From: a virus
Lineage: Duplodnaviria > Heunggongvirae > Uroviricota > Caudoviricetes
Length of the DNA stretch: 54,932 nucleotides
Reading direction: 5' to 3' (one strand)
IMG/VR virus record: IMGVR_UViG_2939147180_000006
Location: 1-54,932 of that record
Translations under genes and position numbers: made by a program
In this document: one piece after another, positions 12,305 to 35,298 of the stretch
Layout: every line of letters begins with the position of its first letter
Numbering within the stretch: the stretch's first letter is position 1
Notes under the pieces: generated by a model
The model's input: only the letters and a program-made list of their open reading frames with translations
What the model was told of the DNA's origin: nothing
Databases searched by the model: none

Positions 12305-12334
12305 AAAAACCCCGCGCGAAGCGGGGTTGTTTTT
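12305..12334 (+). terminator. Rho-independent terminator (bidirectional) ending the L-M moron operon
   Basis: ccccgc-gcgaa-gcgggg hairpin followed by TTGTTTTT; A-run on the other side. Confidence 0.65.
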
Positions 12335-13785: not shown

Positions 13786-13810
13786 AACCCCGGCATTGTA
13801 CCGGGGTTTT
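13786..13810 (+). terminator. Rho-independent terminator (bidirectional) between moron 2 and tape measure gene end
   Basis: aaccccgg-cattgta-ccggggtttt hairpin with T-run. Confidence 0.6.
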
Positions 13811-17197: not shown

Positions 17198-17222
17198 GCC
17201 CGGTTAATTCCGGGCTTTTTCT
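17198..17222 (+). terminator. Rho-independent terminator ending third moron operon
   Basis: gcccgg-ttaatt-ccgggc hairpin followed by TTTTTCTT. Confidence 0.65.
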
Positions 17223-17923
17223 TGCTCGCGTTTTTTCATCAATTCCAGCACCCTTTTAGCTGCCTCCATTTGCTCCTCATAATCACGTTTATTTATGTGA
17301 ACGCTTGGCTTACTTACCTCGTTTCTTTCGTCTGGTGGCGTTTTAGCGCGTACAGCTGCCCTGTATCCGGTCATTGTCATGCCCCACGCTTCTGACTCAG
17401 ATAACCCCAGGTGAGCAACGGCAGAATAAACAAACTCGAGGATATCAAATGTCGGCTTGTACTCGCCTTTCTGTGTTGCGCCCGTGTCCTCCTCTGGACC
17501 GTCACCAATTAAACCGTGATACATGCAGTGTTGCGCCAGTGTGATAACGTCACTGGTAGGCATCAATCCGGGTTTTAGTCTCAACTTACCCGAAGGAGTA
17601 AACCTGCATTCGCCCAATAACGGGCCTATTTCTTCCTCTGAGCAACATCTCAGTATGTGGATGGATGTTTGCACTAACTCACCATAACAACGCGCCATAA
17701 TGCGATTACGGAGGTCTGGATCCGTTGGCAAACGCTGTGGATATTTACCACCGTGCACAGTTGCGAAATATTCAACCAGTTCCCTGTCACTGCCGATTTT
17801 AGCCATTGCAGCAAAGCAGGGATTGAATACATACCGCCTGCCATTGACTACAGCCGCAAATTGTCCGGCTCGAACATGGATCATAGATGTCACCTTAAAA
17901 ATAAAGGGGCCAAACGGCCCCAA
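17204..17923 (-). CDS. Putative tail assembly chaperone (G/GT position)
   Basis: 239-aa ORF between major tail and tape measure genes; assignment by position only; true start may be internal. Confidence 0.4.
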   Translation of the reverse strand: MGPFGPFIFKVTSMIHVRAGQFAAVVNGRRYVFNPCFAAMAKIGSDRELVEYFATVHGGKYPQRLPTDPDLRNRIMARCYGELVQTSIHILRCCSEEEIGPLLGECRFTPSGKLRLKPGLMPTSDVITLAQHCMYHGLIGDGPEEDTGATQKGEYKPTFDILEFVYSAVAHLGLSESEAWGMTMTGYRAAVRAKTPPDERNEVSKPSVHINKRDYEEQMEAAKRVLELMKKREQEKARN

Positions 17924-20235: not shown

Positions 20236-20264
20236 AAAAAAAATCCCCGGCATCGCGCCGGGGA
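20236..20264 (-). terminator. Rho-independent terminator just downstream of major capsid gene
   Basis: Perfect 8-bp stem tccccggc/gccgggga followed on minus strand by TTTTTTTT. Confidence 0.7.
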
Positions 20265-20283: not shown

Positions 20284-21336
20284 TTATTTGTGACCGTAAA
20301 CAACACCGGAACGGCCCAGCATGTCGCAGGTGATTTGTAAGCCTTCGGCAGACATGATTTTGAAGTTGTAGTTATCAGTAGGCATAAAGCGCGGCATTGG
20401 GACAACACCAGTAGTCATACCAACCAGCGGGGTAATGACGTTGCGACGGCGTTGGTAAGCAATGAACTCGTTGCCTTTCAGTGCAAAGGTCTGACGGATT
20501 TCTTTAACCGGAATGAACGGTTTAACGATATTCAGTACAGTACCAACAACAGTACCGTTAGCAATGTGCGGCGCTGCCAGGTTAGCCATGATTTCAGGTG
20601 ACACCCACATGATGTCATACTGGTCAACGCGGTTGTTACGGGCCATGACACCGAATGCACCAGTGGTGAAGAATTTGATGATGTCGTCGAATCCGTCAGT
20701 GGTGAGGTCGTCAGTGGTCATTTTCAGTTGCTGGGTATTACGGTGATTTTTAATACCCTGGCCAGGTTTACCGTTGACGTTGATTTTTTCGTTACCGTTA
20801 AGGTAATACTCAACGCGGGCTTTGTTGAATTTTTGCAGTTTCAGACGCTGGCTGTCCAGGGCGAGGTCAATACCCACAGTTTTCAGACCTTCGGAATGAC
20901 GCCAGTTGACACCGTAACCCGCTGTGAACATCGGGATCGGGTCGCCATCGCTACCGTATTCGGTGTGATCAAAGCCATGTGGCGCTTGACCATCGATACT
21001 AACGACAACTTCATCGTTAATATCACCGGATACGCTGTACATTTTCTCGGTTTTACCGATTGGTAATACGGTTTGAACAGCCATCAGGTCGTTTACAATT
21101 TCGATGCCAGTCTCTTCGGTGCTCATTTCGATAATCTGGTTATCGATAGCTTTCCAGAATTCCTGATCGAAGCCGCCAACGGCATTACATGCCAGGATGT
21201 CAGCGGTCATGTTTGCCATATTTGCGGCAATAAGAGCGCCGTCACGATCATTGAACATGTTGCGCTGCGCCCAGAGGTGATCCCACTGAGCACGAATGCG
21301 GCTGTTGGTAGCAAGGTTGTGTTTATTAAACAACAT
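20284..21336 (-). CDS. Major capsid protein
   Basis: 350 aa, position after scaffold and decoration-like genes and before the terminator; family not verified. Confidence 0.6.
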   Translation of the reverse strand: MLFNKHNLATNSRIRAQWDHLWAQRNMFNDRDGALIAANMANMTADILACNAVGGFDQEFWKAIDNQIIEMSTEETGIEIVNDLMAVQTVLPIGKTEKMYSVSGDINDEVVVSIDGQAPHGFDHTEYGSDGDPIPMFTAGYGVNWRHSEGLKTVGIDLALDSQRLKLQKFNKARVEYYLNGNEKINVNGKPGQGIKNHRNTQQLKMTTDDLTTDGFDDIIKFFTTGAFGVMARNNRVDQYDIMWVSPEIMANLAAPHIANGTVVGTVLNIVKPFIPVKEIRQTFALKGNEFIAYQRRRNVITPLVGMTTGVVPMPRFMPTDNYNFKIMSAEGLQITCDMLGRSGVVYGHK

Positions 21337-29413: not shown

Positions 29414-29877
29414 ACGGCATATTCAACCTCGCGGCGGTTAACCAGACCATGCCACTTTTTGCCGCCAGCGTATACCCAGCGTTTAAGCTGTGCGCACGCT
29501 TCTGATTTCTTGCCGTCATTGAGTAGCTTTAATAAGGTTGATGTTTTGAAGTTGGTTGCGCCTACGTTATAGGCGAATGAATAAAGTGCTGCGCGGGTAA
29601 AATCTGATATTTCGACTTTAATATATGGGTCAATCGCTTTTGCGGTCTTGTGTAGATCTTTATTTAACAAAGCATCGCATTCTGATTGCGTGTAAGTCTT
29701 CCCAAGCATGATGTCTTTTCCGGTGTGACCGTAGCAAACAGTCCATACACCAACAACATCACGATATGGATCGTGTTCCACGCCCTCTAATGGCTTAATC
29801 ATCACAGCCGCTATAGCGATTGCCCCACCAGCCGCCGCCGCAACAATCTTGTTTTTCAGCGATTGGCTAATCATATT
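29383..29877 (-). CDS. R: SAR endolysin (T4-lysozyme fold, phage 21 R-like)
   Basis: Start trimmed to MISQSLK; Gly/Ala-rich SAR segment [17 protein letters not shown]; catalytic E-D-T pattern [23 protein letters not shown]; close resemblance to R21 from memory. Confidence 0.85.
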
Positions 29878-30076
29878 ACTTATTCCCCATTCGTGCGTCG
29901 TGTTCCTCTTGCGCCCGCTTGTTCTCCTGTGATTTGAAGTAATAATTAACGGCAAATGTGCCTATGGTTGATAAGATACCCACAAAGACGGCAATGTCAT
30001 TGATGGTTATCGCGCCGAAAAAAGCGGTTACGGCCCCGGTCACATACGCACACGCCTCCCGTATTCTGTCGAACAT
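29876..30076 (-). CDS. S: Class II holin (pinholin, S21-like)
   Basis: 66 aa, two TM segments, charged C-terminus; GGAGG RBS; ATGA overlap with endolysin; table start at 30109 lies in the terminator. Confidence 0.75.
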
Positions 30077-30092
30077 AGATTTACCTCCAACA

Positions 30093-30118
30093 AAGCAAAA
30101 ACCCGGCACGGGGCCGGG
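30093..30118 (-). terminator. tR'-like Rho-independent terminator immediately upstream of holin
   Basis: Minus strand cccggc-cccg-tgccggg hairpin followed by TTTTTGCTTTG, ending about 10 nt before the holin RBS. Confidence 0.6.
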
Positions 30119-30146
30119 TAGTTACAGTTTCGCATTGTTAGGTAAT

Positions 30147-30176
30147 ATTTTAATCTGTTTGTTTGCGCTCTACAAA
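30147..30176 (-). promoter_or_regulatory. Candidate sigma70 late promoter (pR'-like): TTGTAG-17bp-TAAAAT
   Basis: Read on minus strand; promoter, ~45-nt leader and terminator precede the holin as in the lambda pR'-tR' arrangement. Confidence 0.45.
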
Positions 30177-30183
30177 TACGGCT

Positions 30184-30360
30184 TTACTGCTTTCTGTATA
30201 TCAGGCCATTATTTAGTAATGTTTGCATATGCCACCGATCCATGTCGCTTAATTCCCAATACGGAACATCATCAGGTCTTATCATCACCGCTTCACCTCT
30301 AACCAAATACGCGATGTTAAATACCTTATGCAAATAGATACCATCTTCGATCTCATTCAT
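30184..30360 (-). CDS. Hypothetical protein (58 aa), paralog of adjacent ORF 30357..30542
   Basis: Manually translated MNEIEDGIYLHKVFNIAYLVRGE...; shares the IEDGIY N-terminus with its neighbour; ATGA overlap. Confidence 0.4.
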   Translation of the reverse strand: MNEIEDGIYLHKVFNIAYLVRGEAVMIRPDDVPYWELSDMDRWHMQTLLNNGLIYRKQ

Positions 30361-30542
30361 AGTTCACCAAGTTTAAACAGTTCGCCTTTATCAACGTATC
30401 GCTCAATATCTTCCCTTGTTGTTTTGATGAATGGCTCTGCATATTCCTCCCCACCATCTACACTAATTGTTACAGTATCGCCTTCAACCATGTAAAATAC
30501 GTTTTCCATCAGGTTTACACCATAGATACCGTCTTCAATCAT
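30357..30542 (-). CDS. Hypothetical protein (61 aa)
   Basis: Track ORF; MIEDGIYGVNLMENVFYMVEGD N-terminus similar to the downstream paralog. Confidence 0.4.
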   Translation of the reverse strand: MIEDGIYGVNLMENVFYMVEGDTVTISVDGGEEYAEPFIKTTREDIERYVDKGELFKLGEL

Positions 30543-30775
30543 TTCTTGCGCTCCTTAATAGCTCGCTTGATCTGCTCTACCGTAGCATCGAAGAAAGCGA
30601 GAAACATAACTACAGGCCATAAAGGAATCTCAAGGCCACCAGGTTTAGCACCGCTAAACTTAATAAAACATGACATCAGGATCGCGCCAGCGATATAAAG
30701 CAAAACAATCACAGCAATAAGGCATTCAATCATAATCATCCTCATCGTCTTCGTGTTCAGCCAGGAACTCATCAA
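30539..30775 (-). CDS. Hypothetical membrane protein (78 aa, two TM)
   Basis: Track ORF; hydrophobic segments; 4-nt overlap with neighbour. Confidence 0.4.
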   Translation of the reverse strand: MMSSWLNTKTMRMIMIECLIAVIVLLYIAGAILMSCFIKFSGAKPGGLEIPLWPVVMFLAFFDATVEQIKRAIKERKK

Positions 30776-30980
30776 CCACGCGGTAAGTTACTGGCGGGAT
30801 GTATTCGAAATCATCAGAATCAAGATCAAGCGTCCGGCTGTCGCCATCGTCATCAATCGTATTCATCCCTAACTCACCGAAAGGGCCGTACCCAATGTGG
30901 CCCAGGTATTCGCATCCAGTAGTAAAGCCAGGGTATTCGCCTTTACACCTGATCTTGTATAGCTTACTTGATACGCTCAA
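30726..30980 (-). CDS. Hypothetical acidic protein (84 aa)
   Basis: Track ORF in co-directional small-gene island. Confidence 0.35.
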   Translation of the reverse strand: MSVSSKLYKIRCKGEYPGFTTGCEYLGHIGYGPFGELGMNTIDDDGDSRTLDLDSDDFEYIPPVTYRVVDEFLAEHEDDEDDYD

Positions 30981-31287
30981 TTTTCGATCCCCCGTCTTCA
31001 GATTCTGTTATTTTGTATTCCGCGATCTTTTCCGCGCCAATTAATTCGACTTCGTTTTTAGGGAAAGGATTAAGCGCCACCGCAGCAAAAGTAAATCCCC
31101 TAACTTTATTCAGATCTTCAAGATGTTTTGCATCAAAAGGCGGTTCTGATACGTGGAAGCATTTAACGTGCGCGTCGTCTTCAGTGGCTACACGGAAACA
31201 TGCGCCAGGTTGTCCGGCGAATTGTCCATGTTTCTCATCTTCTGGAAAAGTGCCACGGAAAACCTTAACGCTGATAAATTTAGACAT
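30964..31287 (-). CDS. Hypothetical protein (107 aa)
   Basis: Track ORF in island. Confidence 0.4.
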   Translation of the reverse strand: MSKFISVKVFRGTFPEDEKHGQFAGQPGACFRVATEDDAHVKCFHVSEPPFDAKHLEDLNKVRGFTFAAVALNPFPKNEVELIGAEKIAEYKITESEDGGSKIERIK

Positions 31288-31290
31288 TTA

Positions 31291-31545
31291 TTATTCTCCT
31301 TCGTAAAGAATTGCCACCAGTTCTGCATCAATTAGCGTGTTATGATCTGCATAAAACCCGTGGCGCAGAATTGAGGCAAGACCAGCCACTTTACGCCACA
31401 TAGGGGTCGATTCGTTCAGGTATTCTTTCTCCCTTTTTTCGCTGTATGGCAATTCATAAAACCGACCACGATTAACATCTTCAATCACGCGGATATATTT
31501 ACCATCAAATCGGCTATTACCGCGCCATAGTCTGATCACAACCAT
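31291..31545 (-). CDS. Hypothetical protein (84 aa)
   Basis: Track ORF in island. Confidence 0.4.
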   Translation of the reverse strand: MVVIRLWRGNSRFDGKYIRVIEDVNRGRFYELPYSEKREKEYLNESTPMWRKVAGLASILRHGFYADHNTLIDAELVAILYEGE

Positions 31546-31547
31546 AA

Positions 31548-31859
31548 TTAAAACTCCGCACCAGGTAAGCTACGCGCTTTATTTACCGCATCTTGTTTTA
31601 ACAACAAACTGGCGTGATAACTCATGTTCAACATATTGACAGCGGGTATTCCATCATTTTCCGACTTTATTCTTAACAACTGGTTTTTAGTAAAGATCCT
31701 GTCACCATCAGTTATATATAACCAGTCTCCGCGCTTACCAACTACAACATGAGATCCACCCCAACTGTCTTTAAATTCGTAATTACAGAAAACATCACCT
31801 TCAGGCACTTCAACAAAACAGCACGCTATGAATTTATCGCTTTTCATGATTTTGCCCAT
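31548..31859 (-). CDS. Hypothetical protein (103 aa)
   Basis: Track ORF; preceded by intergenic region carrying regulatory motifs. Confidence 0.4.
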   Translation of the reverse strand: MGKIMKSDKFIACCFVEVPEGDVFCNYEFKDSWGGSHVVVGKRGDWLYITDGDRIFTKNQLLRIKSENDGIPAVNMLNMSYHASLLLKQDAVNKARSLPGAEF

Positions 31860-31876
31860 CAGTCTTTCGGTGGCTT

Positions 31877-31940
31877 ATATATAACAAAACGGCACTGCCG
31901 AAACAATGCCATTTTGTATACATTGTGATAAAGATCACAT
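31877..31940. promoter_or_regulatory. Regulatory region: inverted motif TATATAACAAAACGG-N16-CCATTTTGTATA plus CRP-consensus palindrome TGTGATAAAGATCACA
   Basis: Read directly; TGTGA-N6-TCACA at 31925..31940 matches the CRP core consensus. Confidence 0.45.
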
Positions 31941-31976
31941 TTTTATTTATTCATTAAAATCAACATTATAACGCAA

Positions 31977-32189
31977 TTAATAACGCTCGAAGCTGGCGGA
32001 AAAATCAATACTTGATATCTCACCGCCTCGATAAGTAGGCCAAAAACGCCAAATATCATCATGGTCATCAATCAAGACAACATCAGTACCTATTCTGTAA
32101 CCATCATTACCATAAATGACCTTAACATCATAAGTACGCCCAGGAGTAAAAATACTCTCATTGCTTGAGTATATGCATTTAACTTGCAT
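31977..32189 (-). CDS. Hypothetical protein (70 aa)
   Basis: Track ORF in island. Confidence 0.35.
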   Translation of the reverse strand: MQVKCIYSSNESIFTPGRTYDVKVIYGNDGYRIGTDVVLIDDHDDIWRFWPTYRGGEISSIDFSASFERY

Positions 32190-32466
32190 TGTCAGCCACC
32201 TTTAAATAATTTTTCGTGTCAATATCTGCCGGATACCTGGAAAATTGCGCAAGCCATTGTCCGGTAATGTTTTTCACCAGTGCATAATCAAGATCGCCGC
32301 AGTAGAATACCTGGTACATTGTCCCTTCGTTATCATCCATAACAAAGACCATTGGATCGGTAGTCGCATTGCGCAGCCTGTGAATCGTGTAAGCCTGGCC
32401 AGTAGTGAATTTGTACTCGTTACACGTTGTGCGGCAAAACATCCGGTCAAAATAGCTTTCCATCAA
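32179..32466 (-). CDS. Hypothetical protein (95 aa)
   Basis: Track ORF in island. Confidence 0.35.
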   Translation of the reverse strand: MMESYFDRMFCRTTCNEYKFTTGQAYTIHRLRNATTDPMVFVMDDNEGTMYQVFYCGDLDYALVKNITGQWLAQFSRYPADIDTKNYLKVADNAS

Positions 32467-32729
32467 AAAATCCCCTTATAATCGACCGTGTATTTTGCTA
32501 TTAGCTTCCATTCACAATAGCTTTCCATGTCTCGCGGTTGCCAGCCTTTCATGCCTACAGCACCACGCACGCCGTGGCGACGATAATTATCGTTATAGTC
32601 AGCTACACACCACGGCTGAAGCACAAACATGTAATTGGCCTCGTTAACCAGGATCGCCATCTGCTTTCCTGTTGCCTTATCTTTCGCCCGGAAATAACTT
32701 ACCCTGATTTTCATTTTTAATAACCTCAA
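32463..32729 (-). CDS. Hypothetical protein (88 aa)
   Basis: Track ORF in island. Confidence 0.35.
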   Translation of the reverse strand: MRLLKMKIRVSYFRAKDKATGKQMAILVNEANYMFVLQPWCVADYNDNYRRHGVRGAVGMKGWQPRDMESYCEWKLIAKYTVDYKGIF

Positions 32730-32925
32730 TCAACATTTCTTCTTCCAGGTTGGCAGGACGTTTACGGAATATGCCAGCAAAAACCAAATCGTCCAGGTGC
32801 CCCCTGGTGCAAAACAGCTTTTCTTCCCTAACCCCGTCAGAATCGCACCTGTAAGTCTTATCGTTGATCAGAAAGTAAAAGCTACAGAATGAAGGGGCCA
32901 GGTAAACATCTTCGTAAACGTCCAT
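32677..32925 (-). CDS. Hypothetical protein (82 aa)
   Basis: Track ORF in island. Confidence 0.35.
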   Translation of the reverse strand: MDVYEDVYLAPSFCSFYFLINDKTYRCDSDGVREEKLFCTRGHLDDLVFAGIFRKRPANLEEEMLIEVIKNENQGKLFPGER

Positions 32926-32929
32926 GATG

Positions 32930-33172
32930 TTAACCCTCGACTACTTCCAGACCGCGCCCCTTGTCGCCCACGAAGTCGGCAAGGCTGAACGTATACGACC
33001 ATGCCGGATTGATGTAATGGTCATCAGCGCCAGCGGCAATGAGGTCAGCACCGTTAATCATGCAAGTGACACCATCACTATGAACGACGTTAACCACCTT
33101 ACCAACAACCTGTTTTAATGATGGATAACCGTGATCGTGCAAGAATTTGACTTTCACTCTTCTGTCCCCCAA
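32930..33172 (-). CDS. Hypothetical protein (80 aa)
   Basis: Track ORF in island. Confidence 0.35.
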   Translation of the reverse strand: MGDRRVKVKFLHDHGYPSLKQVVGKVVNVVHSDGVTCMINGADLIAAGADDHYINPAWSYTFSLADFVGDKGRGLEVVEG

Positions 33173-33393
33173 CGCTCAATACTGATTAAGAAGTCCCGGA
33201 TAGCGTGTCGCTCGTCGCGCGTTGGTTTGCGCTTACGGTAGATCCTGAAATCGAACCATTCTTTTTCCTGCTCAAAATCCAGGTCGTAAGCAAGCGCCTC
33301 AATGTATCCGCATTCGTGATACCAGTACGCCACGCCAGCACGAACAAAAAAGCGGGTTTTATCCCGCTTGTGCTCATAGATACGCATATTCAC
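33154..33393 (-). CDS. Hypothetical protein (79 aa)
   Basis: Track ORF in island. Confidence 0.35.
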   Translation of the reverse strand: MNMRIYEHKRDKTRFFVRAGVAYWYHECGYIEALAYDLDFEQEKEWFDFRIYRKRKPTRDERHAIRDFLISIERWGTEE

Positions 33394-33399
33394 CCCCCG

Positions 33400-33630
33400 T
33401 TATGCAGTTGTGTAGCTGTCCACCAGCTTTTCATCTTTCATTCTGGCAAGCTGATCGGTGTTCATCGTGTAGCCACCATCAGAGAAAAGCAATTCAGCCG
33501 CAGCGCGACGAAAAGCAATATCATCATGGTTACGTGTCCATGTAGCGATCACAACGCGTTTCCCGTTAGTGGCGAACATAGACAATTCATTATCAACTAC
33601 GTCGATAGCCTGCCAGATTTTTAGCTCCAT
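33400..33630 (-). CDS. Hypothetical protein (76 aa)
   Basis: Track ORF in island. Confidence 0.35.
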   Translation of the reverse strand: MELKIWQAIDVVDNELSMFATNGKRVVIATWTRNHDDIAFRRAAAELLFSDGGYTMNTDQLARMKDEKLVDSYTTA

Positions 33631-33986
33631 GATTTATCTCCGTAGATCTTGAATAGTTCACACGCTTCCTGATTTTCAAATATATTCATATGCAGGTCAC
33701 GCAGGCGGCGCATTGTGCGGAATCGCGGCCTGAACTCCTGGCTACGTTTAATGTATTTGCCGCCAATTGAATAAATATGCCCGTATGCGTACCATCTGTT
33801 ACCTACCCATATGTCATATTCTTTTCCTTCGTAATTGAATTTTATCGTTAGCTCGCCGACTTCAACTATTAACCCTTTATCAATGATGTCATTAAGCATT
33901 TCATCCCATTCTTTGAGGAATGGTTGTTGATAAAAACCAAAAAGCGTATTCACAGCATGACAAAGATAATCAATGATTATTTGCAT
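33621..33986 (-). CDS. Hypothetical protein (121 aa)
   Basis: Track ORF in island. Confidence 0.4.
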   Translation of the reverse strand: MQIIIDYLCHAVNTLFGFYQQPFLKEWDEMLNDIIDKGLIVEVGELTIKFNYEGKEYDIWVGNRWYAYGHIYSIGGKYIKRSQEFRPRFRTMRRLRDLHMNIFENQEACELFKIYGDKSWS

Positions 33987-33990
33987 ATTA

Positions 33991-34203
33991 TCACCACATC
34001 ATATAATAAACGTTCTCGTCAGCTAACATGTCAGCTACATCCTGCGTCATGTGTCTGGCCTCAAGGAAATATTCCTCACTATGCCATTCCCTTACAAGCA
34101 TACGCGCCCATTTACGGCGCTGGCGCTTATTGCGTCGCAGATCATCAAAAGCCTTTAATGCTTTGTCATATGCCCTTACAAGGCGCTTGCGGTTACTTTT
34201 CAT
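33991..34203 (-). CDS. Hypothetical basic protein (70 aa)
   Basis: Track ORF; Arg/Lys-rich. Confidence 0.35.
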   Translation of the reverse strand: MKSNRKRLVRAYDKALKAFDDLRRNKRQRRKWARMLVREWHSEEYFLEARHMTQDVADMLADENVYYMMW

Positions 34204-34206
34204 ATC

Positions 34207-34542
34207 TTAAAACCTATATTGCCAATAAATATCGCAGTTAATAGCAAAAACCTTAACAGGATCGTCACCAAATAAAGGATGTTGAATCGTCTTGATTGTG
34301 TACCCCATATAAGGAAGAATCAGTATTCGTTCTCTATCGTCGTTTGCAGGGTATCCCCATTTAAGAATCAATCTTGTATATTCCCTCCCCTCCAGGCGTT
34401 TACGCCAATAGTCATTATAAAGCCTGTATTCCTCCACCTTCTTTCCCGCCCGTATAGCGTGGAAGTATTCTCCTTTTAAATTCAAATGTAAGTGCTTATT
34501 TGCCATCACTATGATCCTGTAAACAGTCGTTATAGCCTTCAA
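34207..34542 (-). CDS. Hypothetical protein (111 aa)
   Basis: Track ORF in island. Confidence 0.4.
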   Translation of the reverse strand: MKAITTVYRIIVMANKHLHLNLKGEYFHAIRAGKKVEEYRLYNDYWRKRLEGREYTRLILKWGYPANDDRERILILPYMGYTIKTIQHPLFGDDPVKVFAINCDIYWQYRF

Positions 34543-34801
34543 TGTATCCGGTTAATCCGGTGTTACTCACTGACCATTCAGCCGAACGGCGCTTGATGGC
34601 CTTGTCCATAGTCATTTCACCTTTGCGGTGACATCCTGCATCAATGTAACGGTTGACAACTGAAGACAACCGTCCGCGTAGCTGTTGTGTTCCAGCGTAA
34701 TGGTGTGCCGTTTCCGTTAATTCGTTAACCAGTTTTGCAAATAGATGTTCCTTTAATTTAGGCTTCATTGTCGTCAACCTCGAAATACTGCTTAATAGCA
34801 C
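34496..34801 (-). CDS. Hypothetical protein (101 aa; likely starts at MKPKLKEHLF)
   Basis: Track ORF; alternative internal start reduces overlap with the upstream gene. Confidence 0.4.
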   Translation of the reverse strand: MLLSSISRLTTMKPKLKEHLFAKLVNELTETAHHYAGTQQLRGRLSSVVNRYIDAGCHRKGEMTMDKAIKRRSAEWSVSNTGLTGYIEGYNDCLQDHSDGK

Positions 34802-35105
34802 GTTTGACGTTCATTTCACGCTGATAATTGTTATCGCTATAGATTGCGGCTGCCGATACGTGATCGATAATTTGCTGTAATAAATCAGGATGAATTTTTA
34901 TTTTTTCATCAAGGACAATGCGAGATGGCTTATGTGCTGTAGCAATATCATTAACGATTTCTATCTCACCACCGCCGCCGCAGCGAGGACAAACGAATTT
35001 ATCACCTTGATACAGCATGAAGCCGCAACCTTTTTCAGTTTTTACGACCATACCATCGTCGTCGCAGTTTTCGCAATACAGCCACCCAATATTAATTATT
35101 TTCAT
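34758..35105 (-). CDS. Hypothetical zinc-ribbon protein (CxxC...CxxC)
   Basis: Start trimmed to MKIINIGWLYCENC; Cys pairs CENC and CPRC. Confidence 0.4.
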   Translation of the reverse strand: MKIINIGWLYCENCDDDGMVVKTEKGCGFMLYQGDKFVCPRCGGGGEIEIVNDIATAHKPSRIVLDEKIKIHPDLLQQIIDHVSAAAIYSDNNYQREMNVKRAIKQYFEVDDNEA

Positions 35106-35298
35106 TATCTTTATTCCGTCCGTAAATATGTACTGGCTCAACTGGTACGGCTGGCAATTCACCATCATTTAACGCGCTTGCCATACCCAATATTAATCGT
35201 GCTTCCGCACCAGTGACTTTCTTACACCATGCACCGCCAGTTTTATCTTCGAACAAGATAACAGCAAACTGATCGTTTATTTCCAGCTTATCCATCAT
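35092..35298 (-). CDS. Hypothetical protein (68 aa)
   Basis: Track ORF; 4-nt overlap with the Q-like gene. Confidence 0.35.
   Translation of the reverse strand: MMDKLEINDQFAVILFEDKTGGAWCKKVTGAEARLILGMASALNDGELPAVPVEPVHIYGRNKDNENN

Follow-up and report, generated by a model that had tools for sequence, protein, structure and literature searches.

Late regulatory cassettes of the Q-lambda type consist of a Q gene, the promoter PR', a Q-binding element (QBE), a sigma-dependent pause element (SDPE) and a terminator (PMC9388147). In phage lambda, the sequence AACGAT at +1 to +6 acts as a -10-like element that brings about a sigma-70 pause at +16 (PMC4005639), and the paused complex is the state onto which Q loads (PMC4005639; PMC9388147). 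The late promoters of lambda and P22 both read TAAATT-TGACTC-AACGAT, and in P22 the transcription start is annotated at the initial A of the last hexamer. In Stx phages, cargo genes are located downstream of pR'-tR' and are therefore Q-dependent. For the mEp021 group of temperate coliphages (mEpimmI phages), which match lambdoid phages in frequency in human gut samples, an N-like antiterminator, Gp17, and three nut sites have been described; Gp17/nut antitermination is experimentally established in mEp021, t5 is listed as an experimentally demonstrated terminator, a Q-like protein is mentioned, and a late promoter or Q site is not described in that work (PMC11893012).

The window, meaning the whole stretch of 54,932 nucleotides analysed here, belongs to a relative of these mEp021/mEpimmI phages (89-97% identity). 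On its minus strand, a 107-bp gap bounded by the last small open reading frame (ORF; 30184..30360) and the holin ATG at 30076 holds what is probably the late regulatory cassette of a temperate coliphage from the mEp021 (mEpimmI) group, working like the pR'-qut-tR' regions of lambda and P22 (Table 1). Read 5' to 3', the gap contains TTGTAG, AGCGCAAACAAACAGAT, TAAAAT, ATTACCT, AACAAT, GCGAAACTGTAACT and the hairpin ACCCGGC-CCCGT-GCCGGGT, followed by TTTTGCTTTG, TT, GGAGG, TAAATCT and the holin ATG. It is one of just two intergenic gaps longer than 100 bp between Q and the holin gene. A first-pass annotation of this DNA had listed TTGTAG, a 17-nt spacer, TAAAAT, a strong terminator and the holin ribosome-binding site on the minus strand, and every one of these motifs was found where it had been placed.

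Table 1 Features of the proposed late cassette and of the neighbouring genes (positions in the window)
Feature	Position	Strand	Remark
Q-lambda-family antiterminator gene, 240 aa	35295..36017	-	PF03589, PHROG 127, PDB 7ubm
Island of ~20 tightly packed small ORFs	30184..35298	-	ORF list
Proposed -35, TTGTAG	30170..30175	-	Weak match, 3/6 to TTGACA
Spacer AGCGCAAACAAACAGAT, 17 nt	30153..30169	-	Between TTGTAG and TAAAAT
Spacer core AAACAAA..GAT	30163..30153	-	Candidate Q-binding element; invariant in 37 distinct sequences
Proposed -10, TAAAAT	30147..30152	-	5/6 to consensus; invariant
AACAAT, putative -10-like sigma-dependent pause element	30134..30139	-	Would occupy +1..+6; invariant in all relatives
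Terminator hairpin ACCCGGC-CCCGT-GCCGGGT	30101..30119	-	7-bp stem with 6 G-C pairs, 5-nt loop
T-rich terminator tail TTTTGCTTTG	30091..30100	-	Directly past the hairpin
Ribosome-binding site GGAGG	30084..30088	-	7 nt before the holin ATG
Holin gene, 66 aa, HP1/class II type	29876..30076	-	PF16080, PHROG 20; first late gene

The promoter had previously been described as near-consensus, a description that has to be withdrawn. Its -35 hexamer is poor, the pair TTGTAG/TAAAAT scores 8/12 and is consequently absent from the list of a consensus scan with a threshold of 9/12, and no extended -10 (TGn) is present at TAAAAT. Even pairs of at least 9/12 occur at chance frequency in the scanned region (23 found versus 23.0 +/- 4.5 expected). 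Because promoter-like sites are found there at chance level, the hexamers alone were dropped as evidence for a promoter. Among the relatives, the -35 takes the forms TTGTAG, TTGTGG, TTGTTG and TTGTAT, with TTGT retained in most of them; the MagusPhagus-type variant has TCGCGC at this position, i.e. no -35, and roughly a quarter of the relatives lack a recognisable one.

The segment downstream of the -10 holds the key feature, one that the first-pass annotation did not mention. AACAAT lies 7 nt past TAAAAT, is followed by GCG and retains both critical bases, A in position 2 and T in position 6, and it can be classed by these bases as a putative sigma-dependent pause element of the Q-lambda type. 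By analogy with the known systems, transcription is predicted to start at about A30139, and a pause is predicted from lambda near 30124/30123 (+16/+17). The location of the lambda element between -35 and -10 points to the spacer core AAACAAA..GAT as the candidate Q-binding element of the window, and the spacer resembles neither those of lambda and SEN22 nor any other known Q-binding element in sequence. A search of Rfam gave one sub-threshold chance match only.

For comparison, an outgroup was assembled from 54 loci with Q-lambda-family proteins (34-41% identity), lambda and P22, which reduced to 44 distinct sequences. All 44 contain, within about 110 nt after the Q stop, a -35, a 17-nt spacer, a -10, a gap of 5-7 nt and AAC[GA]NT or AATGAT; the -35 is a good one in every case (such as TTTACA or TTGACT), and one locus has exactly CCTAACAAT, that is, TAAATT, 6 nt and AACAAT. 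A position-weight model of -35, -10 and pause element was then built from these outgroup sites alone and applied to both strands of the 54.9-kb window. The site at 30152(-) came out best with 20.7 bits, the next independent site reaching 13.6; for -10 and pause element alone, the scores were 19.7 bits versus 14.5. In dinucleotide shuffles of the whole window, the real score was reached in 11 of 300 with the full model and in 13 of 300 with -10 and pause element only. The model score alone is thus only modest evidence (p ~0.04 window-wide). The top match is on the right strand and inside the 107-bp gap, directly before the best terminator and the first late gene, and the composite promoter-pause site is beyond chance. 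When 185,579 species genomes were scanned with the 17-base pattern of the -10-plus-pause core, 54 matches were obtained, all in unrelated taxa and by rough estimate consistent with chance, and no distant relatives were found.

The core motif is present in 44 IMG/VR contigs of the mEp021 group and in 28 of 5,426 complete E. coli genomes, with one copy per genome and without annotation. Across 37 distinct 260-nt segments, the spacer core, the -10, CTAACAATGCGAAA, the hairpin stem, the T-run and the ribosome-binding site are invariant or nearly so, whereas the loop of the hairpin varies, as do two bases immediately 5' of its stem. The module follows at least four unrelated upstream genes and precedes two different holins; being kept amid different flanking genes, it behaves as a unit. 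Each of the 43 loci that have both Q and the module contains a single copy, on the Q strand and 3.0-6.7 kb past Q, and in all 43 no other -10-plus-pause match between Q and the holin gene scores as well as the module. No recurring alternative site near Q was found in these loci. The distance from Q to the module is 5.1 kb in the window, 1.9 kb in mEp021 and 1.9-6.7 kb across 44 relatives, never adjoining Q, versus at most 110 nt in the 44 outgroup loci. Adjacency to Q is an organisational, not a mechanistic, feature of such cassettes.

The Q-like protein matches Pfam PF03589 (E 1e-29) and PHROG 127 and aligns with the Q-lambda structure PDB 7ubm (E 8e-40), the N-terminal 114 aa from end to end; the four zinc ligands and the N- and C-terminal RNAP-contact regions are conserved. 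Judged by these comparisons, it is a genuine Q-lambda homolog. It does not fall into the Q21/Q82 type, as a Pfam scan of the protein returned PF03589 and a sub-threshold DnaJ zinc finger and no PF06530. An insertion of ~33 aa (residues about 115-147) places two extra CxxCxGxG motifs in the zinc-ribbon arm, and the sub-threshold match marks it as DnaJ-like. Two subtypes of this arm, in proteins of 240 and 242 aa, occur in the group and combine freely with all spacer and promoter variants; covariation of the zinc-ribbon subtypes with the spacer variants was sought and none was found. The status of this gene as the only Q-like one was checked via the mEp021 annotation alone.

The terminator had been called strong, and the data bear this out: the hairpin is the top-ranked terminator-like site of the 26-38 kb region and alone folds at -12.5 kcal/mol. 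Hairpin and T-run (30119..30092) lie 3' of the pause element and 5' of the late genes, as expected of the intrinsic terminator of a Q-lambda-type cassette. From A30139 to the end of the T-run we count ~44 nt, in good agreement with the "about 45 nt" given earlier for the distance from promoter to terminator. The leader has a folding energy of -21.8 kcal/mol (z-score -3.35). Among relatives the stem is invariant and the loop varies, and this hairpin is annotated as a predicted terminator in the GenBank records of mEp021, mEp010, mEp013, mEp044 and mEp515, none of which annotates a promoter. By GenBank order, t5 of mEp021 is probably the terminator of the window.

We also considered whether the hairpin might be a nut site. 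The boxA consensus is CGCTCTTA-like. No such boxA is found in the leader, and the hairpin loop is CCCGU and variable among relatives, whereas the boxB loops of the mEp021 Gp17 system are conserved and A-rich (PMC11893012). A boxA/boxB reading was ruled out because the loop is not A-rich and boxA is missing.

Two further pairings were noted in leaders. In the window, the leader 5' end AACAAUGCGAAA (30139..30128, minus strand) is complementary to UUUUUGCUUUGUU (30100..30088) just beyond the hairpin; this pairing (-20.7 kcal/mol) encloses the terminator hairpin and could form in read-through RNA only. In the outgroup, we examined the first 30 nt after the predicted late start of loci L130-L183, L056 and L057, and in 25 of the 34 distinct leaders (2.3 expected) the first five bases, i.e. 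the pause element, form pairs with +19..+25. Compensatory changes affect two of the five pairs (AACGA/TCGTT versus AATGA/TCATT and AACAA/TTGTT). We know of no described role for this stem of Q-lambda-family leaders, and the window leader does not have it at that position.

That Q and its presumed target are separated by an island of small genes, as the first-pass annotation had it, is confirmed by their coordinates. All eight island genes of mEp021 have homologs in the window island, which has further genes, and island length among relatives ranges from 1.9 to 6.7 kb. The last two genes, at 30184..30360 (58 aa) and 30357..30542 (61 aa) on the minus strand, are tandem paralogs belonging to PHROG 15318, a family of unknown function. 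Another ORF, 32677..32925 (-), upstream of the proposed late promoter, shares 70% identity with mEp021 gp41, whose annotation as a virion structural protein is based on mass spectrometry (mEp021 record; PMC11893012). Since the island is upstream of the cassette, it should belong to the early, N-type-antiterminated transcript and should be Q-independent.

Other places between Q and the holin gene were weighed as the late site and rejected. The next small ORF begins within the stop codon of Q (ATGA), which leaves no space for a promoter right behind Q, and no above-chance site was found near Q in the window or the 43 loci. The island contains an AT-rich gap of 117 bp (31860..31976, minus strand) with a perfect TATAAT, the inverted repeat GTGATctttATCAC and a weak hairpin that ends in a T-run; this gap has no pause element and is not conserved in mEp021, and it could serve as promoter or operator of the moron type. 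Another hairpin with T-run, a good terminator-like one (33340..33369, minus strand; AAGCGGGATAAAACCCGCTT TTTTTGTT), was set aside because it is inside coding sequence, 18 nt into the CDS that starts at ATG 33387 and encodes a homolog of mEp021 gp39.

Downstream of the cassette, the holin gene is followed by a gene for a SAR-type lysozyme (PF00959) and then by spanins, and all ORFs of 130 aa or more in the late region (10-30 kb) are encoded by the minus strand. Within the late structural operon, the coding strand has strong hairpins resembling intrinsic terminators at 20244..20264, 17906..17921, 17198..17215, 13786..13808 and 12308..12328 (-), and the one at 20264 is situated just after a 350-aa ORF (20284..21336). 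With such internal terminators in a co-directional late operon, processive antitermination makes sense.

A Q-target cassette of the pR'/tR' kind, as had been proposed, is supported at the level of sequence by the elements themselves, their conservation, the Q family membership, the uniqueness of the site and the equivalents directly after Q in outgroup relatives. For the window we infer a transcription start, a pause, Q binding and Q-dependent read-through as follows. E. coli sigma-70 RNA polymerase would start at about A30139 from the good -10 TAAAAT and the weak -35, and sigma region 2 would re-bind AACAAT at +1..+6, causing the complex to pause at about +16/+17. Without Q, termination at the hairpin and T-run would yield an RNA of ~44 nt, and the 30-kb operon for lysis, head and tail would remain silent. 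Q would be supplied by the early rightward transcript, 5 kb upstream; once accumulated, it would bind the conserved promoter spacer and load on the paused complex, making it terminator-resistant, and the Q-modified polymerase would pass the cassette terminator as well as the strong terminators inside the late operon. The early/island transcript would likewise end at the cassette hairpin.

Several features may be counted against a Q cassette. The -35 is weak or, in some relatives, absent and there is no extended -10, whereas the outgroup pR' promoters all have a good -35; the spacer is unlike known Q-binding elements and shows no covariation with Q; the +1..+5/+19..+25 stem found in most outgroup leaders is not at that position; and the homolog of gp41, a reported virion protein in mEp021, is encoded upstream of the proposed late start. 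The poor or missing -35 is also what one would expect if the hairpin merely ended the early/island operon and the late genes were reached through Gp17/nutR2 by terminator-resistant polymerases, with silent hexamers and an upstream block kept otherwise or by recent common descent. The wholly co-directional region from repressor to tail fits this explanation, as do the Gp17/nut system established experimentally in mEp021, the demonstrated t5, which is probably the terminator of the window, and a module divergence of just 3-10% among relatives. We nevertheless consider it unlikely, as it leaves an intact and conserved Q-lambda homolog without a target, no other candidate site being present, and accounts neither for a -10 and an AACAAT at family-typical spacing right before the terminator nor for the invariance of the block despite swapped flanks on both sides. 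Both routes moreover coexist in lambda, so N-type read-through does not exclude a pR', and Gp17 acting from nutR2 upstream of Q could contribute some late expression by read-through.

The promoter and terminator could also be a real pair that is independent of Q, an attenuated or activator-dependent holin/late promoter under another phage factor, with a leaky attenuator or a small-RNA leader. A weak or absent -35 suggests activator dependence, no covariation of Q and site was seen, and short pR' leaders may have a function of their own, StxS being an example (PMC7547250). However, a -10-like element at +1..+6 is what specifically marks sites of the Q-lambda family, the mEp021 annotation shows no other evident late activator, and a late operon with internal terminators requires processive antitermination, which makes a Q-independent pair very unlikely. 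Least of all do we believe in a chance juxtaposition of hexamers beside an ordinary terminator: hexamer pairs of such quality do occur at chance frequency and the composite score is reached in ~4% of shuffled windows, but position, strand and adjacency to both the terminator and the first late gene, together with invariance over 37 distinct sequences despite exchanged flanks and the uniqueness of the site in 43 loci, make coincidence extremely improbable.

In a rather improbable extension of the Q-cassette reading, Q and its site would have been split by a fast-evolving 2-7 kb island of early-expressed small genes and the -35 mostly or wholly lost, and Q with its enlarged DnaJ-like double zinc-ribbon arm may therefore do more than antiterminate, for instance replace the -35 contact and help to recruit or retain the sigma-70 polymerase; the terminated leader of ~44 nt may also be made constitutively in lysogens as a small RNA, like StxS in Stx phages. 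Whereas the early N-like antitermination of mEpimmI phages has been studied, their late promoter, pause site and terminator can now be placed, as sequence-based predictions, at single-base resolution. The predicted ~44-nt leader RNA and +16/+17 pause make the late switch directly testable, and the textbook adjacency of Q and its site appears dispensable.

Compared with known systems, the window cassette is probably a member of the Q-lambda late-cassette family in a group for which we found no description of one, its unusual trait being a loading site detached from Q. With lambda pR'-qut-tR' and Q-lambda it shares the Q family, a -10-like pause element AAC..T that occupies +1..+6 at 6-7 nt past the -10, an intrinsic terminator ahead of the lysis genes and a holin as the first late gene. 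The lambda cassette starts ~45 nt past the Q stop, whereas 5.1 kb separate the two in the window; the -35 of lambda is good (TTGACT), its leader has 194 nt (6S RNA) and its discriminator-like sequence is GGG, as against TTGTAG, ~44 nt and GCG in the window, and the two spacers, which include the Q-binding element, are unrelated in sequence. The likeness to lambda pR', 6S RNA and tR' claimed by the first-pass annotation thus holds for the layout, while in leader length the window is nearer to P22. P-late/qut/t-late of P22, with gp23, shares the short terminated leader (terminator ending at ~+59 versus ~+44) and otherwise has the promoter/pause layout of lambda; it differs in adjoining gene 23, in its strong -35 and in having ~300 nt between leader and holin. 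A short leader is thus nothing unusual for this family.

The closest outgroup is formed by the SEN22/SE1-type P22-like Salmonella phages, whose Q proteins share 40% identity and the same CxxCxGxG insertion and whose site, TAATAT, 7 nt and AACAGT, has the 7-nt spacing and CTAACA context of the window. In these phages, however, the site directly follows Q, with a good -35 (TTTACA), a different spacer (AAGTGGCGATTTTTGTT), and tRNA-like and other sequence past the terminator. The late regions of Stx phages resemble the window in that accessory genes spanning several kb separate Q from the lysis genes. The Stx cargo is downstream of pR'-tR', where it is Q-dependent (PMC6266700), whereas the window island is upstream of the cassette; its predicted early and Q-independent expression, unlike that of Stx-type cargo, matters for predicting when accessory genes are expressed.
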